DNA from: Candidatus Woesearchaeota archaeon
GTDB lineage: Archaea; Nanobdellota; Nanobdellia; Woesearchaeales; WJKR01
Direction: 5' to 3'
DNA: 64,000 bases
Assembly (NCBI GenBank): GCA_016927245.1
Contig: JAFGNA010000017.1
Location: 17,242 to 81,241, forward strand
The notes beneath the pieces were generated by a model, which was not told the DNA's origin, ran no database searches, and saw only the letters and a list, made by a program, of their open reading frames with translations. Made by a program: the position numbers and the translations under genes. Positions 4,753-46,477 of this stretch are shown one piece after another (position 1 is the first letter of the stretch; each line of letters opens with the position of its first letter).

Positions 4753-5988
4753 ATGGAAAAAGGCCTAAAAAGACAACTACTCATTACCCTATCCCTCACC
4801 CTCACAGGACTGCCCCTCGCCACAGCGGCCAGAACCGGCATCCAACCACTCAACGGCGTCCTCGAACTCATCAGCAGCGTGTTCTACCCCTCAGCAATCC
4901 TCAACAACACAACCCTCAGGATAGGCTTCTTCAAAGCACTCTACTTCTTCCTCATCTTCGCCGTCGTCAACATCATCCTCAAAAAAGCGAAAGTGTTCCA
5001 AGGGGACGACAACTCGAAAAGAGGAGCCACGGTCGCGGCCGCCGTCTTCGCACTCATCGCCGCGTTCTTCATGCCAGCGCAAGCGTCCGAAGGGCTCGCA
5101 GGGTTCATCGTCACCATCTTCACCCTCATCGCACCCGTAGGGCTCGCAGGATTCCTCGCCTACTACTCCATGGCCAAGCTCAAGAAAGACTGGATCCAAC
5201 ACCTCTTCGGCCTCATCCTCCTCTTCGTCAGCTCCTTCATCATCAGCTGGACCATGGGCGCCATCCCCACGATGCGCGTCGCGCAAGACCTCACAGACAC
5301 CATACTCTCCTACGCATTGCTCGCCATCAACATCCTCATCATCATCAAGCTCATACAGCTCATCAGCGCAGCGTTCAAAGGCGTCAAGCTCCCCAGCATC
5401 CGCCCAGGTGGCGGAGGTGACGGCGGCGGGGGCGGCGGAGAAAGGCCAGAACGGCCACCGAAAGAACCAGCAACCATCATGGTCCGCGTGCTCAGCGCCG
5501 ACAACCAACCTTTGCCCGAGACCATTGTCGAATGGGTGCGGCGGCGACGCGTCAAGGCACGCGACATCACCAACGCGCAAGGAAATGCCCCTACCTCAGG
5601 CCAGCCATTTAGCCTTCACCCCGTGAAGCACACGCTGCGCTGCACTTACCGCCTTGGTGACCATCAAGAATTCGTCCCGACCCAGAACAATACGCTCGAA
5701 GACGGTCACACCGTCATCCTCAAGCAGAACTTCAGCCTCCGACGAGGGGACAACGGCACCATCACCATAATCCTTGGTGTCAGGCAGCGAGGAGAAGGAG
5801 GAGAAGACGGCGGAGACGAGGACTTCTGCCCCCGCATCACCAACCTCAGGCTCATCCAACCAGAAGTGCTCCGCGCAGAAGCAGTCATAGACGCCCAGGA
5901 AGCACAGCTCGACGTGCAAGGAGCGGAGCAAGACGTGCGACAAGCGACCGTGGAAGGACCACCAGCACAAGGGGGTGAGCGACCATAG
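4753..5988 (+). CDS. multi-pass membrane protein with Gly/Pro linker and C-terminal beta-rich domain
   Basis: Signal-like N-terminus, about five TM segments, GGGGDGGGGGG linker, beta-strand-like tail. Confidence 0.8.
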   Translation: MEKGLKRQLLITLSLTLTGLPLATAARTGIQPLNGVLELISSVFYPSAILNNTTLRIGFFKALYFFLIFAVVNIILKKAKVFQGDDNSKRGATVAAAVFALIAAFFMPAQASEGLAGFIVTIFTLIAPVGLAGFLAYYSMAKLKKDWIQHLFGLILLFVSSFIISWTMGAIPTMRVAQDLTDTILSYALLAINILIIIKLIQLISAAFKGVKLPSIRPGGGGDGGGGGGERPERPPKEPATIMVRVLSADNQPLPETIVEWVRRRRVKARDITNAQGNAPTSGQPFSLHPVKHTLRCTYRLGDHQEFVPTQNNTLEDGHTVILKQNFSLRRGDNGTITIILGVRQRGEGGEDGGDEDFCPRITNLRLIQPEVLRAEAVIDAQEAQLDVQGAEQDVRQATVEGPPAQGGERP

Positions 5989-15774: not shown

Positions 15775-16566
15775 TTATAAAGATTGTGTTTTGTTGTCGA
15801 AATATTTCCTGAATCGGTCTCTGCGCGCGAGGACGGTGTCGGCGTAGGCTTGGCCTGCGGCGTTGGCGTATCGTGGTCCTTGGTTGTACTTGGCGAGGAC
15901 GTCGCGTTCCTGCCTCGTGGTGGTGTAGAGCTGGTCGAGGTGCTGGGCCATGCGGTCGAGTGCTTGGCGGCTGTCGAAGGGGTTGATGGCTTTCCAGATG
16001 GTGGTGTCCTCGTTGTTGTAGGGGTGGTCGAGGTAGATGTATTTGGTCAGTTGCGCCGGTCCGAGCGCGCCTGTCGCTGACACCGCCCATTCGTGGCCTC
16101 CTGCTTCCACGCTGAAGATGGCGGCGAGGGTTTCTGGCTTGACGCGCGGGTAGCGGTTGTTAGCTTCGAGGATGTCGTGCTTGTGGGTTTGCAGGAATCG
16201 TTCGAGTGTCTGCTCGTCTCCGCCTGTTCCGGAGGTTGTTCCGAGCAGCCATGCCAGCCCTTTCTCGCCGTAGCGCTGGCGGTCGCGGTAGATTTCCTGT
16301 CCTGTCTTGCGCCTCGCGTGGAAGCGGTTGTACTCGATGTCCGGCTTGCCGTCGGCTGCTCGCAGGTAGCCTCCTTTGAGGGTGTCGAGGCGGGGGATGG
16401 CGTAGATGAGGAGGTCTTTGATGTGGCTTCGTTGCTCTGCGAGCTGTTCTTGGGTGATGAGGGCTGCTCGTTCCTCTCTTGTGGTGTGCTGTGGGGGTTC
16501 TGTGCTCGGGGTGTTGAGGGTTCCGAGCAGGCCTATGCTGAGCAGTGCTCTTTTCCAGGACGACAT
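15775..16566 (-). CDS. exported lytic transglycosylase (SLT domain) protein
   Basis: Signal-like N-terminus; LAAIFSVEAGG..AVSATGALGPAQL and LAKYNQGP match SLT motifs. Confidence 0.8.
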   Translation of the reverse strand: MSSWKRALLSIGLLGTLNTPSTEPPQHTTREERAALITQEQLAEQRSHIKDLLIYAIPRLDTLKGGYLRAADGKPDIEYNRFHARRKTGQEIYRDRQRYGEKGLAWLLGTTSGTGGDEQTLERFLQTHKHDILEANNRYPRVKPETLAAIFSVEAGGHEWAVSATGALGPAQLTKYIYLDHPYNNEDTTIWKAINPFDSRQALDRMAQHLDQLYTTTRQERDVLAKYNQGPRYANAAGQAYADTVLARRDRFRKYFDNKTQSL

Positions 16567-16770
16567 AATAATACCTCTTTTTACTACTAAATAATAACTA
16601 TATTTACTTATTTATATGTTTTTTGTTTTTGCGCGCGAGCAGAGACTCAGCGGCAAGCCCGGCAAGAAGCCACAGCCAGGCAGCACCGCAGGACAGCACA
16701 GGAATTTATAAATCTGCCGTCCCGCAAGCACAGAAACGCATATAAAAGCAAAGGTGTGCCTACGCGCGCC

Positions 16771-16843
16771 GGGCCCATGGTCTAGTGGCTATGACGTCTC
16801 CCTTACACGGAGAAGGCCGCCGGTTCGAGTCCGGCTGGGCCCA
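16771..16843 (+). tRNA. tRNA-Val(UAC), CCA not encoded
   Basis: Acceptor GGGCCCA/TGGGCCC, anticodon arm TCTCC-CTTACAC-GGAGA, TTCGAGT T-loop; TATAAAA upstream. Confidence 0.95.
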
Positions 16844-16889
16844 GAACAAGAAGCAAAGACTTATATACCAGTATAGGGTTATGTACACC

Positions 16890-17678
16890 ATGGATGTCGC
16901 GATGCTCAGCAACCTCAACAGCCACCCCCAAGGAAGCCACGAAGACCGCATCTTCAGCATCCTCTTCCAAGAGGACGAGCTCACCTGGCAGACCATCATC
17001 CACGACCTCGTCAAGACCGAGCAGATGGACCCCTGGGACATCAACATCGGCACCATCGCGGACAAGTTCATCACCATGCTCAGGAAGATGCAAGAGATGG
17101 ACTTCCGAATAGGAGGAAAGATGATACTCGCCGCGGCCATCCTCCTCAAGCTCAAGAGCGACAAGCTCATGAAAGAGGACATCGTCGCCCTCGACGCCCT
17201 CATCAACAGCACAGAAGACGACTACGTCAGCCTCCTCGACGACCTCCAAGGGTTCTCCGGCGTGTTCGCCAAGCACGAAGAGAAGCCAAAGCTCATCCCG
17301 AGGACGCCGCAGCCGCGGCAACGAAAAGTCAGCGTGTACGACCTCGTCGAAGCGCTGGAAAAAGCCCTGGAGACCGAGACGAGGAAGCAGTTCCGCTCCG
17401 TCAACAACGCCCCAGAAGTCAAGGTGCCCGAGAAGAGCACGGACATGACCGCGCTCATCAACACCCTCCTCGGCACCATCAAGAAACGGCTGAGCATCAC
17501 GAGGACCATCACGTTCGACCAGCTCATCCCCAGCCCGAGCAAAGAAGACAAGGTGTACACGTTCATCCCCTTACTGCACCTAGACACCCAGCGAAAGATA
17601 GAACTGCTGCAGAAGCAGCACTTCGGCACCATCAACATAAAATTAAATAAAGCCCGGCTTAATTCTACTGATCGATAG
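16890..17678 (+). CDS. scpA: segregation/condensation protein A (SMC kleisin)
   Basis: MDPWDINI, G..ILAAAILLKLKSD, TFIPLLHL, Q..HFG.I. Confidence 0.92.
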   Translation: MDVAMLSNLNSHPQGSHEDRIFSILFQEDELTWQTIIHDLVKTEQMDPWDINIGTIADKFITMLRKMQEMDFRIGGKMILAAAILLKLKSDKLMKEDIVALDALINSTEDDYVSLLDDLQGFSGVFAKHEEKPKLIPRTPQPRQRKVSVYDLVEALEKALETETRKQFRSVNNAPEVKVPEKSTDMTALINTLLGTIKKRLSITRTITFDQLIPSPSKEDKVYTFIPLLHLDTQRKIELLQKQHFGTINIKLNKARLNSTDR

Positions 17679-34814: not shown

Positions 34815-34856
34815 AACAAAACATATTTATAAGTGCGTCACTTCTCAGTGGCAAAG

Positions 34857-36446
34857 ATGGCGGATGTCGGTGAGCAGTTACGGGAATTCTTCCACCAACA
34901 CCCCTACGCGGAGCACGCCACGTCAGAGATCATCAAAGCAGTCTACCCCGATGAGTACGGGCGGATCAAGGCGGCGCTGCACGACCCCTTGACGGACCGG
35001 GAGTCACGGCTCGTCGCGAAGCGGCACAAAGGACAGCTCCACCGCAGAATCCTCTACCATCTCAACCGGCTCGAGGCCGAAGGCGTCATCGCGGTCAGCC
35101 AGACGAAGGGGAAAGGCGAGAAGTGCTACGTGCTCAACCAACAGCAGGGACGCAAGCCTCAGCACCAGCGCATCCCGCACGCGCCCATGGGGCAGCCGCT
35201 CCTCAGGCTCGAGCACTACGTGCAGCGACGCGTCATCACCAGCTACGACCCTCGAGGGTGGCATAGCCGGCTGAACGCCGTGCTCCTCGACACCGTCGAG
35301 GAGGACACGGTAGAGAGCCTCCACGCGAGGATTGCCTCTGTCAGCAAGCACGTCAACGACGTCATCGGCATCTACGCCGCCGAACAGCTCTTGGTCAAGG
35401 AAGACCTCGACCGGCTGAGCAAGCTGCTCAGGCAACTGGACATCGACACCCGCGATAATGAGCGGTCAGTATGCCTTCTCATCGACCTCACCAAAGTATC
35501 GGAACTGAAGTACACCGAGGACTTCTTCGACGCTTTCGCCTTGCTCAACCCGGCGAACGTCAAGGTCGTGCTGTGCATCACCAAGAAGTTCCTCGACCGG
35601 CACCAGCGCTTGATGAAGCACATCATCAGGCGCTGCAGCGAGGCGAGCATCAAGCTCAACCTGCATGACCTCGACGTGCACGAAGCGCCAATCATCGTCG
35701 GCAACGCAGGCGTGTACACCTTGCAGAAAGAGGAGTGGCGGACCTACTTGGACGAGGTCAGGGGGAAGACCATCGGGATCTGCGTGGGGCAGGTCAGCGT
35801 CGGCGTCGACGTGCATCGATTCTTCCAAGAGCGAAGGACTGACAAGGAGTTCAGGCAGTTCATCCTCAAGCTCGGCCAAGCATTAGTGGAGAGCAGCACC
35901 GAGCAGCGCAAGCGAGCGGACGCGGTGTTCGCGGACATCAACCGGTTGAACAAGAAGCCGCACGAGTTCTTCCGGTTCAGCACGAGCTATATCAGGTTGT
36001 GGAACTATGACTGGCAGGAGCGGGAGCGACCGCACTTCATCGACCTCCTCTCGACAGCCGCGGAGGAGCTCGCCGAGTTCTGCCGCGCGGAAGAGACTAT
36101 TTTCAAGAGCTGCGGCATCCCCATCAGGTTCAAGGCGACCCTGGCGAGCATGTTCTCCAAGTTCGACCCTTCCTTCTGCTCTGAGCGCAGGTACAGCAAG
36201 GTCACCGTGCTGCACTCCCGGACGTTGCAAGATGAGGAGATGCGCAGCTTCATCAAGGCGCGGGAGCGCATCTTCAAGCTGTTCGACAGCAACGACCGCA
36301 TCAGGATATTCAGGGCGACGCCGTGCGAGCCGGATGACGTCTTGGAGGAGATCAAAGAGATACTCAAGCAGCACGACATCCCTAACCTCACCTATGACTT
36401 CGCGGAGCGGAAGGCGGACATGACCCTCAGCCAGTTCATGACGTGA
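34857..36446 (+). CDS. hypothetical protein with N-terminal winged-HTH-like domain
   Basis: RRILYHLNRLEAEGVI.V...KGKGEKCY.L resembles a recognition helix plus wing; remainder unassigned. Confidence 0.8.
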   Translation: MADVGEQLREFFHQHPYAEHATSEIIKAVYPDEYGRIKAALHDPLTDRESRLVAKRHKGQLHRRILYHLNRLEAEGVIAVSQTKGKGEKCYVLNQQQGRKPQHQRIPHAPMGQPLLRLEHYVQRRVITSYDPRGWHSRLNAVLLDTVEEDTVESLHARIASVSKHVNDVIGIYAAEQLLVKEDLDRLSKLLRQLDIDTRDNERSVCLLIDLTKVSELKYTEDFFDAFALLNPANVKVVLCITKKFLDRHQRLMKHIIRRCSEASIKLNLHDLDVHEAPIIVGNAGVYTLQKEEWRTYLDEVRGKTIGICVGQVSVGVDVHRFFQERRTDKEFRQFILKLGQALVESSTEQRKRADAVFADINRLNKKPHEFFRFSTSYIRLWNYDWQERERPHFIDLLSTAAEELAEFCRAEETIFKSCGIPIRFKATLASMFSKFDPSFCSERRYSKVTVLHSRTLQDEEMRSFIKARERIFKLFDSNDRIRIFRATPCEPDDVLEEIKEILKQHDIPNLTYDFAERKADMTLSQFMT

Positions 36447-37102: not shown

Positions 37103-37269
37103 ATGATGAGGAGTTGGTGAGGGCGTACGAGGAGGAGCTCAAAAGGAAGGATGAGGTCATCGAGCGGCTGCGCGAGGAGAACGAGGTGCTGTTGCGCGCC
37201 TCGGTGAAGGCGGCGAAGGAGCGCTTGGAGCTCAAGGAGCTGTTGCGCGAGCTAGAAGGCAGAAGCTAA
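37099..37269 (+). CDS. 56-aa coiled-coil protein
   Basis: MNDEELVRAYEEELKRKDEVIERLREENEVLL...; ATGA overlap; not in the ORF track. Confidence 0.7.
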   Translation: MNDEELVRAYEEELKRKDEVIERLREENEVLLRASVKAAKERLELKELLRELEGRS

Positions 37270-37412
37270 GAGAATTCTTTCGAGGCGACGATGACGGCTG
37301 CGGAGGCGGCGAGGAGCAAGGATGAGTGGAGGACGCTGGCGAACAGGCCCCAGAGCACGGCGAGGCCTGAGCCCGCGTACAGGACGAACCGGAAGAGCTT
37401 GCCAGCCACCAT
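37266..37412 (-). CDS. 48-aa membrane microprotein
   Basis: MVAGKLFRFVLYAGSGLAVLWGLFASVLHSSLLLAASAAVIVASKEFS; TATAAG upstream. Confidence 0.5.
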   Translation of the reverse strand: MVAGKLFRFVLYAGSGLAVLWGLFASVLHSSLLLAASAAVIVASKEFS

Positions 37413-37591
37413 AGGCAGTCAGGAGGAGAGGATGTTCTTATAGGTTGTGGAATGAGGGAGGATTTTTCGTGCAACACCCCCATTTCCTGGTTTGTGTAAA
37501 ATAAGTGATTTGTGTAATAGCAGTCTATTCTGTGTATCAATGCTTTGTTCAATAACGACTTAGGTTGATTCTCCATGAGGACTTTTTTTCG

Positions 37592-37888
37592 TTAGAATCC
37601 GTATTTCTTATGCGCAGCCTCTATGGAGAGTATTTCTAGTACTCGTACGAGTTTTTCTTTTTCGTCGATGATGTAGAAAGCAGTGTAGGTTCTTCCGATG
37701 TGGATCCTATAGACTTCTTCTCCCGTCACAACCAGCTTTTCTTTGTCACCAATACCCCTTCCCGGATATGGTTGTGAGAGTTTCTGCAAGTTCTTTTTGC
37801 ATATAGAGATGCTTTTTTCGTCTAATGATTGCATGAAATCAACAGCCTCATCAGACAGCAATACGTCATAAGACAATTTTTTACACAT
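37592..37888 (-). CDS. RelE/ParE family toxin
   Basis: YDVLLSDEA..F...L, P.PG.G.GDKEKL, YRIHIGRTYTAFY.ID....V.V. Confidence 0.85.
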   Translation of the reverse strand: MCKKLSYDVLLSDEAVDFMQSLDEKSISICKKNLQKLSQPYPGRGIGDKEKLVVTGEEVYRIHIGRTYTAFYIIDEKEKLVRVLEILSIEAAHKKYGF

Positions 37889-38078
37889 CCTCTAATTTGC
37901 GCCAATTGCCTTTCCCAGCACGAGCGGCCTGAGCAAAACTAGCCAGTTCTCGCCTGTTATGCGCCTGAACGAGTTCGCCAAGGAGCTCATCATAGGTCTG
38001 ACCAGCTTCTTTTATCCGTCCGAGCTGTTTCCATCTGTCTTCCGAGACGGGGATCCGTTTCGTCATCATCTGTGCCAT
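37881..38078 (-). CDS. antitoxin, ribbon-helix-helix-like
   Basis: TKRIPVSE..W..L..IK..GQTYDELL; overlaps the toxin start. Confidence 0.8.
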   Translation of the reverse strand: MAQMMTKRIPVSEDRWKQLGRIKEAGQTYDELLGELVQAHNRRELASFAQAARAGKGNWRKLEDV

Positions 38079-38330
38079 ATTTACAATCAGTACAATATGT
38101 GCATTTATATATTTTGTGATTCCAACGACTGCGTCAATTTGTGTAATAATGAAGAATCCTGTGTAAAATTACCTTAAATTTTTACACAAAGCCCCTCATT
38201 TCCGGCTTTGTGTAAAATATGAGTTTTGTGTAAAAATGACAGATTCTGTGTAAGAATACCACTGGACATGTATCGTAGTAATATTTATAATCTCTTAAAC
38301 CCTTGAATTCTACGATTAGGAGGCTTTACA

Positions 38331-38579
38331 ATGGAAGAGAAGGTAAAACAAGAATTAGCACGCAACGAAGGCTATGTGTTTTTTCTGTCCGATTACGAAG
38401 TGAGACTTGGCTGGAAAGCAGGTAGTGTTATTACCGCAGCATTTTTTAAGAGGCCCAGGGATGACTTTGATAACCACCAACCATTCACGGAAGATGAAGT
38501 CCAACAACTGATAGAAGACCTTAAAGACTTAAGTGACTGGCGACATTATCGCAGGCTTAAGAACAAGCTGAATCAGTAA
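38331..38579 (+). CDS. hypothetical passenger protein
   Basis: AGGAGG SD and TTTATAA TATA upstream. Confidence 0.7.
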   Translation: MEEKVKQELARNEGYVFFLSDYEVRLGWKAGSVITAAFFKRPRDDFDNHQPFTEDEVQQLIEDLKDLSDWRHYRRLKNKLNQ

Positions 38580-38610
38580 TTTAAAAATAGCAGAATCTGT
38601 GCAAAAATGG

Positions 38611-39114
38611 TTACAAGTCTATTTTCGCGCCACATAACTCACAAAACACCTTGCTCAGGGTGCAATCTCTCCCGCAACCGTTCCAATCAGAACATAGATG
38701 GCACTCTTCTTTGTTATGCTCAAGTTTTGCTGGCTGGTTGCATTTGTTGCATTTCCAGACACCCGATACGGCGTGACTTTTGTAATCGAAGACTTCGTAG
38801 CGAAAGCCCCCACGTATAGAATAACGACCTCCTTTAAATCGGATCATATCGCCGTCATTGCCATAAACTACTCCTTTCTTCAAATCATCAGCATATTTTT
38901 CTTCTAATGCCATTCGTTCACGATGTCCGTTAATAGCTTTAGAGACCATATCATCATCAACATACCACTCACGACCTTTTTTGTAAGCAGGCACTTCAGT
39001 GGATGCTAGTGCCACATACCCTCTTGCGTTAGCAGACTTCCTGTACCATTCGTATGCATTTGAAAAGGCACCCGGTTCTGCTTTATATAAATCGACAGCA
39101 TCTTTTAGCTTCAT
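38611..39114 (-). CDS. Cys-rich (probable Zn-binding) passenger protein
   Basis: CNKC, CHLC, C.RDC, CELCG at the C-terminus; PAYKKGREWYV resembles an excisionase-type wing. Confidence 0.7.
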   Translation of the reverse strand: MKLKDAVDLYKAEPGAFSNAYEWYRKSANARGYVALASTEVPAYKKGREWYVDDDMVSKAINGHRERMALEEKYADDLKKGVVYGNDGDMIRFKGGRYSIRGGFRYEVFDYKSHAVSGVWKCNKCNQPAKLEHNKEECHLCSDWNGCGRDCTLSKVFCELCGAKIDL

Positions 39115-39221
39115 TCCTATTGTGGAAGTCGTCACAGATAAAAAATTTTTCGTTCAAAAACCGCGTAATAAATACATTCTCAGGGCAAAGACATTTATAT
39201 AAGAATATATACCTTATAGGT

Positions 39222-39461
39222 ATGGGAAGGGGACGAGGCATATTTGGTATGTCAATAGCATCTCAAAGAGCATGGCAGAACACCATTTCTTTTATCTTCA
39301 TTATCGTTGGAATATATTTGGTACTGGCATGGTTAGAAATAACCCCATTCACAGCAAGATTTGAGTTCCTCAACAATAAAGCCAACCTGATATTGACAGC
39401 AATTATTTTAATCGTGATAGGTGTTCTGCTCAGTGAAAAAATCAAATCCCTCTTTTCGTGA
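39222..39461 (+). CDS. two-TM small passenger protein
   Basis: Two hydrophobic segments; TTTATATAA upstream. Confidence 0.65.
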   Translation: MGRGRGIFGMSIASQRAWQNTISFIFIIVGIYLVLAWLEITPFTARFEFLNNKANLILTAIILIVIGVLLSEKIKSLFS

Positions 39462-39957
39462 TGACTTAAAAGAACTCACAAGTCCGTCAAATTTTATTGT
39501 CGGACTTGTCACACCAGTTGTTATAGGTGTTATTCTAAATCAAGAAAAGAAGATTATTACTGCACTCACAGTCACCAGTACAATGTTAGGACTCATCATT
39601 TTATACTTCTTTTTTAGATGGATCATATATTACAGAAGTGAGAGTGAGGAGAAAAAGAAATCACAAAAAAATGGAAATAAACCACGGGTAATAAACACAA
39701 AAACTACAATACAAGAGGATGCACTCTTTATTCTTGATACAATCTACTCTTTGTATGCAAATGATCAATCAATACAAGCAACAACACTAATAAATCATTT
39801 TAAAGATTGGGAAGGGAAAAGAATCAACAAAGCATTGAGATTCTTGAACGATGAAGGGTATATAGATTTGAAATTCATGTTAGGAAACACAAAAGGAGTC
39901 CAGAACTTCCTCTTTAAAAAGATTACAAACGAAGGAATAAAACTAATAGAAAAATGA
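39421..39957 (+). CDS. two-TM plus wHTH-like passenger protein (start uncertain)
   Basis: Two TM segments then RINKALRFLNDEGYI...KITNEGIKLIE. Confidence 0.65.
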   Translation: MFCSVKKSNPSFRDDLKELTSPSNFIVGLVTPVVIGVILNQEKKIITALTVTSTMLGLIILYFFFRWIIYYRSESEEKKKSQKNGNKPRVINTKTTIQEDALFILDTIYSLYANDQSIQATTLINHFKDWEGKRINKALRFLNDEGYIDLKFMLGNTKGVQNFLFKKITNEGIKLIEK

Positions 39958-40202
39958 AATGGTTCGAAAATCTATGTAGATACCATTACCGACATGAGCG
40001 CGAAATACCTGAATTGAAGAGAAAATTTGGGATTGTTAATGTTGTCGGCTCTATACTTCTCTCAGTGGCCATTATTGAATTAGTAAATCTTATTTTCATT
40101 GATAAAATCATTAAAATTATCATCCTTGCCTTCGCAGGTAGCATACTAATAATGATTAGTCAGAGTATTCATTTTATTGAGAAAAAAAGAGATGATTTCT
40201 AA
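39954..40202 (+). CDS. two-TM small passenger protein
   Basis: ATGA overlap; two hydrophobic segments. Confidence 0.55.
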   Translation: MKWFENLCRYHYRHEREIPELKRKFGIVNVVGSILLSVAIIELVNLIFIDKIIKIIILAFAGSILIMISQSIHFIEKKRDDF

Positions 40203-40993
40203 TTAAATATTTCAACTGATTCTTCCCTCTCAGACCAAAGAAGCGTTTTTACAGAATAAGTTTCAAACTTTTTCAGGTCGTCTGGTGAAACTTTTCTCTC
40301 CTGGTCATTAATGATAACGAATTGATCAGCTGAAGCGTGAACCGTCGCACCCCCCCTTATATCTGATAGTGTGAATAAGACCGCCCTATATCCAGTATTA
40401 GACGGGGAGTTAATAACCTTGACAATTTTTTCGTTTTCCTCTTTTTTCCTTGATGGAATAACAAAGTCAATCTTATTGCTGAAGCCCTTTCCTTCAATCG
40501 TCACATCTCGTGTTGCAGGTATAGAATGCTCTGCAAAGAAATTGGCAACATCTTCAAAGAACAACGCTTTAACATAAGGTTTTGAAAGTATAAACATATC
40601 ACCAATATTTATCATTGCTTGAATTAGTTTATGTTTGCTCTTTGCCAAATCCGACTCTTTACATTCAATGAATATTTCAGAAGTGTCGTTATCAAACCGG
40701 ACCCCAAGACCATTGATGAACTGCGAGAGGATGTCTTTTCTATTTTCTGTGAGTTCAAGATTGTTCGTTTTGAGATCATAATAAGTCATACCATCATCGG
40801 TTAATTTATAAGAATCTGATTTCTCATTGTAAACAACATAAATTCTCAAGTAGTCATTATGTGTATCAAGGAATGGACTGTCAATGGAGGCAATTTTTAC
40901 TCCTTCTTCGTTCGAGGGAATATCTTTAAAACTAATTCTTTCTCTTAGCCAATTCAAGTAATCCTCAATTAGTTTGTCCGGTTGAAGAGTCAT
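40199..40993 (-). CDS. DUF1828/DUF1829-like protein (possible C-terminal nuclease-like domain)
   Basis: PFLD.HND...IY, LTDDG.T, LIQAMI.I.DMF, F.EDV, KIDFVI, IIND. Confidence 0.75.
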   Translation of the reverse strand: MTLQPDKLIEDYLNWLRERISFKDIPSNEEGVKIASIDSPFLDTHNDYLRIYVVYNEKSDSYKLTDDGMTYYDLKTNNLELTENRKDILSQFINGLGVRFDNDTSEIFIECKESDLAKSKHKLIQAMINIGDMFILSKPYVKALFFEDVANFFAEHSIPATRDVTIEGKGFSNKIDFVIPSRKKEENEKIVKVINSPSNTGYRAVLFTLSDIRGGATVHASADQFVIINDQERKVSPDDLKKFETYSVKTLLWSEREESVEIFN

Positions 40994-41442
40994 TTTTTCC
41001 AGTTTCCTGCGCCAGCAGATTTTTGAATTTTGATGCTCGTCTTTGCAATATTGCATAATTCCATGAATTTCTCAATCACAGATCCAAAGTCACTAAGGTC
41101 TTTGAAACCATATTGATTTGCTGGAAATGCAAACCTGTCATTGTATCCTTCCCTATATACATGAACATGAGGACCTGTCACTTTTACTCCACCCGGATTG
41201 ATGTGCACGCGATCATCAACATCAAGCCTCAGCAATGTGAAAACACTGTGGACTCTGTGACCACATCTCATCATTTTCAGCTCGATTTTTCCTTGTTTAA
41301 TGTCAAGCGCAAATATATCGCCGTGAGCATCCGACACAACAGGTTCGCTGAGGTCAAATGATTCGGTCAACTTGACCTCCGTCACATTTTTTAATCGTTT
41401 TGGAACTTTCAGGTATTCAGTTGCTTGATCCTGTTTTAACAT
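40990..41442 (-). CDS. DUF6978-like protein
   Basis: LLRLD....H.NP.G....GPH.H.YREGY.D.FA.P; ATGA overlap with the downstream gene. Confidence 0.72.
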   Translation of the reverse strand: MLKQDQATEYLKVPKRLKNVTEVKLTESFDLSEPVVSDAHGDIFALDIKQGKIELKMMRCGHRVHSVFTLLRLDVDDRVHINPGGVKVTGPHVHVYREGYNDRFAFPANQYGFKDLSDFGSVIEKFMELCNIAKTSIKIQKSAGAGNWKK

Positions 41443-41578
41443 CCTTTTTCCTCGGCCTATTCCAGTACGGACTCTTACACTTCGGGCACACTCTTGGCTC
41501 GCCATCTGTGTTCTCTCGCGGAACCCATATATGACTACACCTTTCGCATTGGAACGCATCGATAGTTATCTTTGCCAT
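41417..41578 (-). CDS. 53-aa zinc-ribbon microprotein
   Basis: MAKITIDAFQCERCSHIWVPRENTDGEPRVCPKCKSPYWNRPRKK...; TTATATAA upstream; not in the ORF track. Confidence 0.75.
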   Translation of the reverse strand: MAKITIDAFQCERCSHIWVPRENTDGEPRVCPKCKSPYWNRPRKKDVKTGSSN

Positions 41579-41731
41579 TTTAATGTACCGTCCGTACTTG
41601 ACCAGTGATTTAAATATACTTATATAATCCTATTATAGTATTAGTATATTACTATAAATATTTTACTAAAGCGAAAACTATATATACTTCTACTATATAC
41701 CTAATAGTAATATATTAATAAGTGAATAAAT

Positions 41732-42865
41732 GTGACGACCGATAGCATTATATTTGTTACACCGACACCCGGACAAGTCACCGAGGTGGAGAGTGAGGAA
41801 CAAACAAAATTCACGGACGACGAAAGGATCATTGAGATCCCTCCGGAGGATAAACAATCTCCAAGGAAGAGCAAACCCACTTATCCTCAAAACTGGCAAG
41901 CATATAATGCAGCAAAGACTAATGAAGACACCTACTTTAAACGCCTTCTAAGAGAACTTCTGTTCGTCAGCATAGATGAGAAGCCCTCAAAAAAACCCGG
42001 TAGGAAGGGCTACAGCGACCAGGATAAGATATTCGCTATGTGCATCAAAATATACTACAAGGGCGATCTACGCAAGGCCGAAGGCATCCTAAAAGAGCTC
42101 AAGAACCTCAAATTCATAGAGAAGGTGCCTTGCTTTAAAAGCATCGACAATTTCTTCAACGACGAAACACTCACCAAAATACTGGATAATCTCATTCTCA
42201 TCAGCGCATTACCGCTTGCACAGATAGAAGAGACAGGAGCTATAGACAGCACAGGCTTCAGTACGAGCCAGTTTGAGAGCTGGAACACATTCAAATGGGG
42301 GAAGCACGAAGGGAAAGAACGCGTCTGGAGAAAAGCCCATGCATGCACCTGCTGCAAGACCAACGCATTCCTCAGTATTAAAGTTACTGAGAAGAACGTC
42401 GGTGACGCGGCGATGTTTAACGACGTTGTTGGCAACTACACCAAATACTTCAATATGCCTGATTTCGTCGCAGACAAGGCGTATCTGAGCAGAGACATTC
42501 TTAAAACTATCAAGAAACTCGGCATGAACCCCTACATCCCGTTCAAGAAGAACAGTATCCAAGCAGCAAAAGGTGCTATGATCTGGAGTCAAATGTACGC
42601 AGAATTCATGACGAACCGAGAGGAGTTCATGCAGAAATACCACCGCAGAAGCAATATTGAGACGAGTTTCCACATGCTCAAGATGCGCTTTGGCAACCAT
42701 TGCATGACGAGAACCTTCCATGCACAGACCAACGAGATCAAAATCAAAACACTCTGCTTGAACCTCTGTATTCTCATTCAGGAGATGTTTGAGCGCCAGA
42801 TAGTGATTGATTTCAACGACTGTGTTAATCTGTGTAATAATGAAGAATCCTGTGTAAAATTGTGA
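41732..42865 (+). CDS. DDE transposase, IS5-like
   Basis: IDSTGF, W.K.H, GD...F, ADKAY, Y..RS.IET.F..LK. Confidence 0.9.
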   Translation: MTTDSIIFVTPTPGQVTEVESEEQTKFTDDERIIEIPPEDKQSPRKSKPTYPQNWQAYNAAKTNEDTYFKRLLRELLFVSIDEKPSKKPGRKGYSDQDKIFAMCIKIYYKGDLRKAEGILKELKNLKFIEKVPCFKSIDNFFNDETLTKILDNLILISALPLAQIEETGAIDSTGFSTSQFESWNTFKWGKHEGKERVWRKAHACTCCKTNAFLSIKVTEKNVGDAAMFNDVVGNYTKYFNMPDFVADKAYLSRDILKTIKKLGMNPYIPFKKNSIQAAKGAMIWSQMYAEFMTNREEFMQKYHRRSNIETSFHMLKMRFGNHCMTRTFHAQTNEIKIKTLCLNLCILIQEMFERQIVIDFNDCVNLCNNEESCVKL

Positions 42866-42968
42866 TTATTTTTTACACAAAGCCCTCATTTCCGTAAATT
42901 ATTTAAATGAGCTCATTCTACACCAACCTTGTCGACTTTAAATCAACAAAAACTAGGTGTTTTCGCGC

Positions 42969-43445
42969 ATGGCAGACAAGAAGAAAAGCAAGACCGCGGA
43001 GCTCAAGGAACAAGTCCAAGAGCTCACTAACTCCCTGCAACGGGCACGGGCAGAACTCGAGAACTATCAGAAACGCGTGGAGCGCGACCGGGAACAGCAG
43101 CAGAGATACGCCTCTGAAGGCGTCCTGAAACGGTTCCTTCCCATCCTAGACAACCTCGAGCTCGCCCTCAAGCACTGCACCCAGCAGGACGATTTCTACC
43201 GTGGCGTGGAGATGATCTACGCGAACATCAGGAGCATGCTCGAGGAGGAAGGCGTCAAGCCTATCCAAGCACTAGGACTCCCCTTCGACCCGTACCGGCA
43301 CGAGGCCCTGCTCACTAAGGAGTCAGACCAACCGGAGAACGCGATCGTCGACGTCATGCAGCAAGGCTACACCTACCACGACAAAGTCTTGCGACCCGCA
43401 AAGGTCGCCATCAGCAAGAACAAGACAGGAGGGAAAGAAAAATGA
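42969..43445 (+). CDS. grpE: nucleotide exchange factor GrpE
   Basis: [20 protein letters not shown]...DKVLRPAKV. Confidence 0.95.
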
Positions 43446-45310
43446 GCAAAATCATAGGGATAGACCTAGGAACGACGTTCTCCGCAGTGGCGGTGATGGA
43501 AGGCGGCAAGGCCACCATCATCCCGAACGCGGAGGGCAGCAGAACCACGCCGTCAGTAGTGAGCATCACCGATGACGGCGAGCGATTGGTGGGCCAGATA
43601 GCGAAGAACCAAGCCATCACCAACCCTGACAACACGGTGCGGAGCATCAAGCGCCACATGGGAGAAGACCACAAGACCAAGATGCAGGGCAAGGAGTACA
43701 CGCCGCAGGAGATCAGCGCGATGATCCTGCAGAAGCTCAAGACGGACGCAGAGGCCTACCTCGGGGAGAAGGTCGAAAAAGCAGTCATCACCGTCCCAGC
43801 CTATTTCGAGGACGCGCAGCGGCAGGCTACGAAGGACGCTGGCAGGATCGCCGGGTTGCAAGTGGAGCGCATCATCAACGAGCCCACCGCGGCCTCGCTC
43901 GCGTACGGCCTAGACAAGGGGCAGGACCACACCATCCTCGTCTTCGACTTCGGCGGCGGCACGTTCGACGTGAGCATCCTTGAACTGGGCGATAGCGTGT
44001 TCGAGGTCAAGGCCACGAACGGCGACAACCACCTCGGCGGCGATGACATCGACGACCTCATCATCGACTGGCTCGCCGACAAGTTCAAGAAGGCGCAAGG
44101 CATCGACCTGAAAAAGGACCGGACCAGCCTGCAACGGCTGAAGGAAGCGGCGGAGAAGGCGAAGATCGAGCTCAGCAATAAGAGCAAGACGAGCATCAAC
44201 ATCCCCTTCATCACCGCTGATGACAAGGGGCCGAAGCACCTCAACGAGGAGCTCACCAGGGCGGAGTTCGAGCGCCTCATCAGTGACATCATCGAACGGC
44301 TCAAAGTCCCGACCATGCAAGCCCTGAACGACGCCAAGCTCAAGCCGGCGGACATCGACAAGGTCATCTTCGTCGGCGGCAGCACCAGGATTCCCAAGGT
44401 GCAGGAACTCGTGAAGAGCATCACGGGCAAGGACGGCGACAAGTCCGTGAACCCTGACGAGGCAGTCGCCCTCGGCGCAGCCATCCAGGCAGGCATCCTC
44501 GCAGGTGACGTCAAGGACGTCCTGTTGCTGGACGTCACGCCGCTCAGCCTCGGCATCGAGACGCTGGGAGGGGTGATGACCAAGCTCATCGATAAGAACA
44601 CGACCATCCCGACGAAGAAGAGCCAGGTCTTCAGCACCGCGGCGGACAACCAGAACGCGGTGAGCGTCCACGTCCTGCAAGGGGAACGACCGATGGCCGC
44701 CGATAACAAGACGCTCGGCAGGTTCGACCTCATAGGTATCCCGCCCGCGCCGCGGGGCGTGCCGCAGATCGAGGTGACGTTCGACATCGACGCCAACGGC
44801 ATCGTGCACGTCAAGGCCAAGGACCTCGGCACGGGGAAGGAGCAGAGCATCAAGATCACCGCGACGACTAACCTGTCAGAAGAGGAGATCGATAAGATGC
44901 GGCGGGAGGCAGAGACCCACGCTGAGGAGGACAAGCGGAAGAAGGAGGAGGTCGACGTTGTCAACGAGGCTGACTCGCTCGTGTATTCCTCGGAGAAATT
45001 GTTCAAGGACTTCGAGGGCAAGGTGGACGGTGAGAAGCTCAAGGACGTCAAGGCAAGGATTGACGAGCTCAAGAAACTGCTCGAGCCGGAGCAGAAGGAC
45101 GTCAAGGCCATCAAGGGCAAGCTCGAGGCCATCAACAAGGATCTCCAATTACTGTCGTCGGAGCTGTACCAGAAGGCTGCTGAGGAGCAGGCGAAGCAGC
45201 AGGCCGCGGGCGGTGACGCGAAGGGCGGCAAGAAGGATTCCAAGAAGGACGGGAAGGTCGTCGATGCTGACTTCGAGGAGGTCAAGGACGACAAGAAGGG
45301 CAAGAAATAA
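43442..45310 (+). CDS. dnaK: chaperone DnaK
   Basis: [41 protein letters not shown]. Confidence 0.98.
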
Positions 45311-45355: not shown

Positions 45356-46477
45356 ATGGCAGAGAAGGACTACTACGACATCCTCGGCGTGGGCAGGGAT
45401 GCCTCCAAGGAGGATGTCAAGAAGGCGTACAAGCGGCTCGCCAAGAAATACCACCCTGACCTGAACAAGGACGACCCTGACGCCGAGCGCAAGTTCAAGG
45501 AGGTCAACGAGGCCGCCTCAGTCCTCGGCGATGAGCAGAAGCGGGAGCAGTACGACCGGTTAGGCGCTGACGCGTTCAAGAACGGAACGGGCGGCTTCAG
45601 CGGGTTTGACTTCTCGGGTTTCGGCCGCGCGCAGGGCTTCGACTTCGAGGACATCTTCGACACGTTCTTCGGCGGCAGGGGGTTCGGTTCTCGTCGCAGG
45701 GGAGCCGACCAGCCAGGCGCTGATCTCCGCTATGACCTCAGCGTCACGTTGGAGGAGGCGGCTGAGGGCGTGCAGAAGGAGTTCAAGGTGAGGAAGCGCG
45801 TGCCGTGCGAGCGGTGCGGCGGGCTTGGCGGCACGGGTATGGAGACGTGCAGGACGTGTCATGGCCAGGGCGTGGTGCGCCAAGCGAGAAGGACTGCGTT
45901 CGGGGTGTTCCAGACGACGATTGCGTGTCCTGAGTGCGACGGCTCGGGGAGGCGGTTCGAGGAGACTTGCGATGCGTGCGGCGGCAGTGGCGTGGAGACC
46001 AAGGCTGTGCGCATCAAGGTGGAGGTGCCTGCTGGCGTGGAGGATGGCGTGCGGCTCCGCGTGCAGGGCGAGGGAGACGCAGGGCTGCGCGGCGGGGAGC
46101 CTGGTGACTTGTACGTGTTCGTCACGGTGGAGGAGCATGAGCACTTCGTCCGTGAGGGCGTTGACTTGCGCCTCGTCATCCCGGTCAGTTTCGTCCAGGC
46201 GACGCTCGGCGCGGAGATTGAGGTCCCGACGTTGTTCGGCCGCGCCAAGCTCAAGATTCCTGCGGGCACGCAGACTGGTACGACGTTCCGTCTCGGGGGG
46301 AAGGGCTTGCCTTCGTTGCGTGGCTCGCGCAGGGGTGATCAGCTCGTCACCGTGGAGGTGGACGTGCCGCGGCGGCTGAATGGTAGGCAGCAGCGTTCGT
46401 TGGAGGCGTTCGCCGAGACGTTGGGTGAGGGTGTTAGGCCGCAGCAGTCCTTGTTCGAGAAGATATTCAAACGATAA
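45356..46477 (+). CDS. dnaJ: chaperone DnaJ
   Basis: J-domain HPD, G/F-rich region, four CxxCxGxG repeats. Confidence 0.97.

Follow-up and report, generated by a model that had tools for sequence, protein, structure and literature searches.

A stretch of 64,000 nucleotides from Candidatus Woesearchaeota archaeon (assembly GCA_016927245.1, contig JAFGNA010000017.1, positions 17,242 to 81,241; hereafter the window) contains, between a small divergent host gene and the heat-shock operon grpE-dnaK-dnaJ, two transposons of one family, designated E1 and E2, which stand head to tail. From left to right, the window sequence reads CCCCATTTCC, E1 (37488-38193), CCTCATTTCC, E2 (38204-42884), and CTCATTTCC, the last being a 9-mer common to both elements. 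This tandem of siblings with homologous ends and different cargo had been described in an earlier note on the same DNA, and its layout and coordinates proved exact. Thus, the ends of E1 and E2 are homologous on the left (39 of 43 aligned bases identical, over ~45 nt) and on the right (67/77), and their interiors are unrelated. E2 has perfect 14-bp terminal repeats (14/14) and a perfect 9-bp target duplication, the left copy of which (38195-38203) lies within the 10-nt spacer CCTCATTTCC (38194-38203; the 9-mer plus one C) and the right copy of which, CTCATTTCC, occupies positions 42885-42893. The left side of E1, by contrast, is decayed, as had also been noted: its right terminal repeat (38180-38193, minus strand) matches at 14/14, whereas the left one, TGGTTTGTGTAAAA (37488-37501, plus strand), matches at 12/14 with terminal positions 1 and 3 changed, and the 9-mer beside it, CCCATTTCC (37479-37487), is a decayed copy of the target duplication with one mismatch to CTCATTTCC.

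The 14-nt end motif GGCTTTGTGTAAAA occurs five times in the window at two mismatches or fewer, always within the E1-E2 locus, against a chance expectation of 0.15 and none of 100 shuffles reaching five; at one mismatch or fewer it is found in three places in the whole genome (1.11 Mb, 24 contigs), again all in this locus. E1 and E2 have GC contents of 0.41 and 0.39, and both 5-kb flanks 0.59. Neither a tRNA gene nor an Rfam family was found in or beside the stack, which excludes an island of the tRNA-integrase type. The small host gene on the left (37232-37413, minus strand), which appears membrane-protein-like from its hydrophobic sequence, starts ~65 bp from the stack, so that the stack is situated between two diverging promoters.

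E2 is a 4681-bp autonomous cargo transposon on the plus strand with at least seven open reading frames (ORFs) besides its transposase gene, and is thus not a simple ~1-kb, transposase-only insertion sequence; its relatives measure 3.9-8.2 kb. Its left end (38204-38260) consists of the terminal repeat and two subterminal direct copies of TGTGTAA(A/G)A, and in its right end (42808-42884) three direct subterminal repeats precede the inverted terminal repeat. The intact IS5-family DDE transposase gene (41732-42865, plus strand; 377 aa) runs with its last codons into the right-end repeats. The recognizable cargo is a pair of neighbouring, overlapping ORFs on the minus strand that match both PADLOC models of the PDC-M24 system, namely PDC-M24A (DUF6978; 40990-41559, 189 aa; PADLOC E 2.3e-33, Pfam E 2.9e-29) and PDC-M24B (DUF1828 + DUF1829; 40199-41056, 285 aa; PADLOC E 4.3e-68, Pfam E 3.5e-22 and 2.6e-17); as graded in the PADLOC library, PDC-M24 is a candidate defence system only. 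Five further ORFs have no family match at threshold, such as those of 82 aa (38331-38579, plus strand), of 174 aa with a Cys-rich C-terminus (38611-39135, minus strand), and two small membrane-type ORFs of 178 and 82 aa with sub-threshold matches only (39421-40202, plus strand). A short internal fragment (38585-38610, plus strand) resembles the inner part of the left end (TCTGTGCAAAAAT and its surroundings) and may be a fossil of an earlier stack fused into the present E2.

E1 (706 bp, plus strand) carries both family ends and two cargo genes and lacks a transposase gene. Only a 22-codon remnant of the transposase 3' end, 82% identical to that of E2, is left (38106-38171, plus strand; overlapping the subterminal repeats). 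The transposase gene of E2 is the sole full one in the genome; the earlier note, too, had assigned a transposase to E2 alone of the two elements. With its family ends, flanking duplication, and small size, E1 falls among the non-autonomous derivatives resembling miniature inverted-repeat transposable elements, although it differs from a classic member in carrying two genes. These comprise an ORF for a probable antitoxin (37881-38078, minus strand; 65 aa) upstream of one for a probable RelE/ParE-type toxin (37592-37888, minus strand; 98 aa), with an 8-nt overlap, an arrangement that fits a toxin-antitoxin pair. The 98-aa ORF has no Pfam match at the gathering score and a weak match to 1wmi_A in the PDB (E = 1), and its Protein Atlas language-model features score 0.96 (197 shared features) to RelE/ParE clusters; the 65-aa ORF matches DUF7557 (E 2.4e-4) and VAPB_antitox (E 0.04), both below cut-off. 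We regard the cassette as a probable, not firm, RelE-like type II toxin-antitoxin pair. The terminal bases of IS903 are required for cleavage, and, by analogy, E1 has probably been immobile since its own terminal bases changed.

The operon on the right, with host-like GC, comprises grpE (ATG at 42969), dnaK (43442-45310), and dnaJ (45356-46477), all on the plus strand, and is preceded, as the earlier note had it, by the stack: E2 is followed by the 9-mer, the promoter, a palindrome, and grpE. Judging from the archaeal consensus, the promoter would consist of a B recognition element (BRE)-like GTAAAT followed by the TATA-like box TATTTAAA at 42900-42907 (together 42894-42907, plus strand), a position conserved across loci. 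The promoter-side end of E2 is thereby placed 9 bp (the duplication) plus 6 bp (the BRE-like hexamer) upstream of the TATA box. After a further 23 nt comes the palindrome GTCGACTTTAAATCAAC (42931-42947), a putative heat-shock operator by the same consensus, which occurs once in this genome at two mismatches or fewer. The grpE promoters across the order have a 17-nt palindrome, GTTGAYTTWAARTCAAC, at ~13-27 nt past the TATA box, whether an element is present or not (L007, L008, L009, L013, L015, and many other loci); in genomes G375 and G267 it is found ahead of another small gene. The palindrome has the appearance of an operator for an uncharacterised DPANN heat-shock regulator.

The E2 transposase scores above the cut-offs of both PF01609 (93 bits, E 2.8e-26) and NF033579 (153.5 bits versus a cut-off of 140), which agrees with the IS5-like assignment proposed earlier. 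Residues D172, D248, E310, Y303, R306, and K317 are invariant across 37 homologues, and the D172/D248/E310 triad and the Y-(2)-R-(3)-E-(6)-K residues are presumably the catalytic signatures. Together with the 9-bp duplication and short terminal inverted repeats starting with GGC, these matches place the family in the IS903-like part of the IS5 family, although the closest named insertion sequences (e.g., IS1420 and ISPpa8) are only ~27% identical to the E2 transposase. Among 120 right ends of the family, 30 have a matching left end and a 9-bp repeat. A relative at E <= 1e-30 is encoded in 32 of 401 genomes of the order and is single-copy in 31 of them, which fits a home-site lifestyle.

An allele of the locus without any element, which the earlier note had proposed to look for, is present in the same-genus genome G002, where the distance from the thyA side to the grpE side is 353 bp as against 5.8 kb here; the heat-shock promoter is intact and reads CTCAAAAACC, ACAACA, and TTTATAAA in succession. 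Another candidate for the empty site in G002, at CCCCTCATAGC, was rejected as the wrong A/T box, the homologous position being the one nearer the palindrome. In the other same-genus genome, G001, the contigs break at the site.

The same promoter has been occupied repeatedly in relatives. Transposases 47-64% identical to that of E2, and some only 27-36% identical, are encoded directly upstream of grpE in other families of the order, and every such element with both ends on its contig is flanked by its own local 9-bp repeat, for example TATCTCACC in G008 (element of 8208 bp), CACTTGACC in L025 (6892 bp), TAAAAAACC in G389 (5704 bp), and CAATTTTTA in G114 (6204 bp). Invariably, the 9 nt, ~6 A-rich nt, and a TATA-like box come after the element end. 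A search independent of the transposase, for the palindrome, 8-32 nt, eight A/T (W8), 13-17 nt, and GGCTTTG, gave matches in 14 of the 401 genomes, compared with none for the reversed control pattern, and grpE adjoins 12 of the 14, including L227, where it has the opposite orientation. The matches in L221 and L227 look spurious, since the palindrome is poor or the end atypical; elements at the site in four additional genomes (G375, G246, G267, and G010) have variant ends that escape the pattern. The site preference suggested by the earlier note is thereby supported. Moreover, G389 and G234 of one genus (g61) carry different elements at the same promoter position, and in G209 nothing more than a miniature of 60 bp is present, between copies of a 9-bp repeat. 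Such re-use by different elements, with the foreign GC content and the empty allele, argues against one inherited insertion. Where the right end at the heat-shock site was found via the transposase gene, the 3' end of that gene faces the promoter without exception (10/10).

The registration extends beyond the heat-shock site. A set of 64 unique, non-stacked flanks facing outward from archaeal elements includes 32 in which an 8-mer made up wholly of A/T begins 5-7 nt past the duplication, the offsets peaking sharply at 6 (28 flanks); the flank composition reads N8-C, RAAA, NN, and TTTATATA. Each of the 15 archaeal elements for which both ends are defined is bordered by such an A/T box on one side or both, and the promoter always points outward; which end of the element faces the TATA box is variable outside the heat-shock clades. 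The pattern was not found in 30 bacterial flanks. In a tree of 73 transposases, the elements at the heat-shock site form two well-supported clades, one including E2 and the other the older stacked element of L025, plus one single row, and no other row has an element at that site. A metagenome scan gave, among the matches listed, mostly distant relatives, with L102 as the only close one.

Two transposase genes stand somewhat apart. In L215 (G250; 16341-17381), a close relative, 53% identical to the E2 transposase, lacks a recognizable right end beyond its stop codon, where unrelated genes follow; sequences resembling a left end occur twice upstream of its start, at 3.1 and 2.6 kb. In L021 (4089-4252; from a metagenome-assembled genome labelled Woesearchaeota), a grpE-site transposase gene is split into ORFs of 168 and 144 aa spanned by a single tblastn alignment, and is probably a decaying copy.

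Stacking recurs across the family. Junctions of the type end, 8-11 nt, end were found at 27 other loci of 196, both archaeal and bacterial; some of the 27 duplicate one place, and one, L208, comes from the unpublished genome G133 and was used for no conclusion. Among the arrays on one 9-mer, L057 and L082 have three junctions apiece and L055, L073, L111, and L115 two, and their members are a mixture of full-length, miniature, and different-lineage elements. At the heat-shock site itself, L025 contains two elements of different age, the older one bearing a transposase, and a solo end remnant, and in L212 a solo right-end remnant abuts the 9-mer of the resident element; the supposed older element of L212 was rejected as a full element, being only this ~19-nt fragment. 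In bacteria, one host sequence, GCGTCTGATAATACATATTAT, adjoins the arrays of two metagenome contigs and of two Acidobacteria-type genomes; it was found in three of five genomes searched, once per genome, and is unoccupied in G403 (loci: L055 8649-8679, L073 2739-2769, L165 ~11015, L166 ~7294, and also L236-L238). Its form recalls a chromosome dimer resolution (dif) site, and it may be one. The sequences thus place the bacterial landmark beside, and not within, the duplicated 9-mer, and a landmark outside the 9-mer leaves the site re-usable repeatedly. A nested case occurs in L024, where a 324-bp miniature of another subfamily (4891-5250; flanks CAATATATT and AAATATATT) lies inside the 8.2-kb element of G008 next to a TATA-like box within the cargo, with the left end of a further element directly after it; this suggests that neighbours can be carried along or fused.

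The cargo elsewhere consists mostly of restriction-modification, ABC-3C, and nuclease genes. Elements at the heat-shock site or close to it carry a type I methylase with its specificity subunit in G008, an ABC-3C system in L025, a large type IIG-like methylase in G114, a type II methylase with a PD-(D/E)XK nuclease in L021, and a Cas4-like nuclease in L034. With the PDC-M24 and RelE-like pairs of the window, these genes bear out the defence or addiction cargo that the earlier note had surmised.

From the sequences compared here, the probable explanation is that IS903-like cargo transposons with a single transposase home to a host landmark outside the duplicated 9-mer, regenerating the site at each insertion and accumulating there. 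The DDE transposase would make a 9-bp staggered cut at a position that a landmark to one side determines; for these archaea, this landmark would be the BRE/TATA element, with a preference for the heat-shock promoter added in some lineages. The register of the cut would bring the duplicated 9-mer directly against the BRE, put the element end 15 bp upstream of the TATA box, and turn the transposase-3' end towards the promoter. Each insertion would leave the landmark and a fresh 9-mer intact between element and promoter, and a later arrival would land there, duplicating the same 9-mer again. E1 presumably arrived first, its decay (two altered positions in the left terminus, one in the flank copy) marking it as the older, and E2 second; defence and addiction genes would in this way pile up at a home site, in a stack that keeps growing. 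The host promoter is preferred as the landmark because it also receives, at the same position, first insertions in genomes that have no resident copy, and it is favoured over attraction by the resident end because E2 is registered to the TATA box and lies 10 nt, not 9, from E1. E1 and E2 are best read as members of an archaeal branch of the IS5 family that consists of low-copy, site-specific cargo transposons, and not of proliferating insertion sequences. The earlier proposal that the family inserts beside earlier copies holds insofar as stacks exist (L025, L212, and the 27 loci), but what is recognized is most likely the host promoter rather than the copy.

How the heat-shock promoter is singled out allows several possibilities: a stable complex of TATA-binding protein (TBP) and transcription factor B (TFB) on the repressed promoter, the protein that binds the operator, or the structure of the DNA ahead of a strongly induced promoter. 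It is conceivable, though doubtful, that some lineages read the pre-initiation complex itself, that is, TBP and TFB on the BRE/TATA of a repressed heat-shock promoter, in the manner of Ty3. Were this so, the 15-bp registration to the TATA box, the variable operator distance, the fixed orientation, and the preference for one promoter would all follow, as would a defence island assembling itself through serial stacking and occasional fusion of neighbours.

Several observations weigh against homing to the heat-shock promoter as set out above. The distance between element end and palindrome varies over 35-50 nt, and the palindrome therefore cannot set the position of insertion. No transposase gene lies within 1.5 kb of five further ends at the heat-shock site; around three of these (G234, G253, and G176) neither a second end nor a transposase was found within ~16 kb, so that they may be remnants, and for the other two the contigs end too soon to tell. 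One transposase-less end, in G391, looks like a left end facing the promoter, and the orientation rule is consequently limited to transposase-bearing elements. The heat-shock clades, which are those of a quick maximum-likelihood search in IQ-TREE, also have members away from the site: L034 lies at the promoter of another gene, with the same spacing, and L022 and L102 lack a TATA box at the expected offset. Every genome in the analysis is metagenome-assembled, and the Logan contigs of the probable source run (X1) end at 38169 and resume at 42832, breaking at the right-end repeat common to E1 and E2, so that the E1-E2 junction is unbridged and the E2 interior uncovered. Finally, the BRE-like flank resembles TRAAW, a half-site of the IS903 target motif tabulated as WTTYA-N9-TRAAW (PMC2577343), and the promoter pattern may partly reflect ordinary preference combined with selection; these two leave unexplained the conservation through the TATA box, the lineage specificity, and the orientation.

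Taken to its full extent, this last objection becomes an alternative in which the elements have only an untargeted, IS903-like preference for A-rich flanks around a 9-bp target, and the compact, gene-dense DPANN genomes tolerate insertions only when these fall just upstream of a BRE, the heat-shock spot being over-represented as an unusually permissive or beneficial intergenic site. We consider this unlikely. The genomes are indeed small (0.6-2.7 Mb), the archaeal flanks read N9-RAAA, resembling the right half of the IS903 motif, and the indifference of either end to the TATA box outside the heat-shock clades is what such a preference would give; however, the conservation continues 6-13 nt past the duplication, beyond the 5-nt IS903 half-site, and orientation, mixed elsewhere, is uniform in the ten transposase-bearing cases at the heat-shock site. 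Nor does permissiveness account for the restriction of these cases to two or three transposase lineages, with none in the remaining archaeal rows of the tree, or for one promoter among about a thousand genes taking 10 of the 53 archaeal right ends.

The terminal repeat of a resident copy is known to attract newcomers in IS30 and IS911, and the end of E1 might likewise have drawn E2 into the adjacent 9 bp. End-9 nt-end junctions are very common, also in bacteria, which have no TATA boxes, and stacked members have the terminal GGCTTTG in common even where their subterminal parts differ. Yet at least 14 genomes received a first insertion at the same promoter position without a resident copy, and E2 keeps the usual 9 + 6 nt from the TATA box at the expense of a 10-nt spacing to E1; spacers of 8, 10, and 11 nt occur in other arrays too. 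Bacterial arrays, moreover, abut a conserved single-copy host motif, and the stacked neighbours in L212 and L025 belong to different lineages, all of which makes attraction by the resident end quite improbable. Hardly credible is an assembly chimera of two alleles or a single ancient grpE insertion inherited vertically, for, even though the source-run contigs stop at the common right-end repeat and all data come from metagenome-assembled genomes, the E1-E2 join has only ~10 nt in common with single-element alleles, too short for a k-mer assembler, the identical architecture recurs in independent assemblies, E2 has 39% GC and perfect repeats in a host of 59% GC, the site in G002 is empty, and different elements within genus g61 and local duplications differing between genomes speak against inheritance.

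The proposed homing to a promoter sets the E1/E2 family apart from its nearest model. IS903 is a ~1-kb, multi-copy bacterial insertion sequence with weak site preference, the termini of which begin with GGCTTTG, as do those of the E1/E2 family. The likeness includes a PF01609/NF033579 DDE transposase with the Y-R-E-K residues, the 9-bp duplication, and a preference for A/T-rich, symmetric flanks as tabulated in PMC2577343. The E1/E2 family differs in its 3-7 kb of cargo, its single copy per genome, its use of one promoter and one orientation, and its stacks.

In lifestyle, the closer parallel is Tn7, which inserts at attTn7, downstream of glmS, with site and orientation specificity at a fixed distance from a landmark outside the duplicated target; Tn7-like elements carry cargo including defence genes and are found as neighbouring or tandem elements at their home site. 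As with Tn7, a landmark outside the duplicated target lets both the host function and the site survive. No homologue of TnsA, TnsB, TnsC, TnsD, or TniQ was detected among the E2 ORFs with Pfam and NCBIfam, the duplication of E2 is 9 bp versus 5 bp, and the landmark is a promoter versus a coding sequence; furthermore, the E1/E2 family gives no sign of target immunity, the opposite being seen.

Among single-transposase elements, those of the IS1202 family (relatives of ISAjo2) insert in one orientation at a fixed short distance from dif/pdif sites, according to the abstract of PMC10132070, and the bacterial relatives of E2 likewise abut a single-copy, dif-like motif. They represent, however, another insertion sequence family, of bacterial plasmids and chromosomes, and the opening of that abstract mentions no cargo or stacks. 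The resemblance to an integron, which the earlier note had put forward, extends to the serial uptake, at one site, of cassettes unrelated to each other, the latest of which lies closest to the landmark, but no further: no tyrosine recombinase (IntI) was found among the ORFs with Pfam and NCBIfam, there is no attI/attC or common cassette promoter, and each unit brings its own transposon ends. The retroelement Ty3 uses its integrase to target Pol III start sites via TFIIIB, and E. coli IS5 has hot spots upstream of promoters, with a 4-bp target and without cargo; both are similar to the present family in the fixed position of insertion upstream of a transcription unit. In archaea, re-use of one integration site has given arrays of tandem casposons and of integrase-borne elements, as described in the relevant part of PMC6563490, which differ in relying on Cas1 or tyrosine recombinases and in targeting tRNA or protein-coding genes.

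A full-text literature search over the main text of papers found neither promoter-targeted archaeal insertion sequences nor stacking in the IS5/IS903 group; the closest concepts it met were the IS1202-family elements at dif sites and the tandem casposons. Home-site transposition is known from multi-protein machines (such as Tn7 and CRISPR-associated transposons) and from a few insertion sequence families. Here, a plain IS5-type transposase appears to achieve it at an archaeal promoter, with base-pair registration to the BRE/TATA, and the E1-E2 case thus provides a concrete, testable example of how a simple DDE enzyme may be aimed. Homing combined with stacking would explain how the very small genomes of DPANN archaea come to have defence islands growing at a single locus, and the region upstream of grpE may serve as a marker for mobile cargo in metagenomes. 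If the landmark is in truth the TBP/TFB complex, this would be the first transposition in prokaryotes guided by transcription factors.

Several minor observations concern the window and its surroundings. A 537-aa ORF just upstream of the thymidylate synthase gene (34833-36446) has no NCBIfam match at E <= 0.01. A 29-nt match to the E1-E2 junction in G005 was discarded as a chance match inside an MCM-like ORF. In a soil metagenome of a different study (run X2, covering window positions 38962-42885), pieces of the E2 cargo occur with only 0-5 differences per ~200-260 nt, and the transposase region has 32-35 differences per 300-420 nt and is followed, after the right end, by a different flank, CTCCAACCGAAAA. 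Near-identical cargo next to a diverged transposase region and a different right flank suggests, from these short contigs, that the cargo of E2 has spread recently. The same run also contains a piece of host-like left flank (37326-37412).

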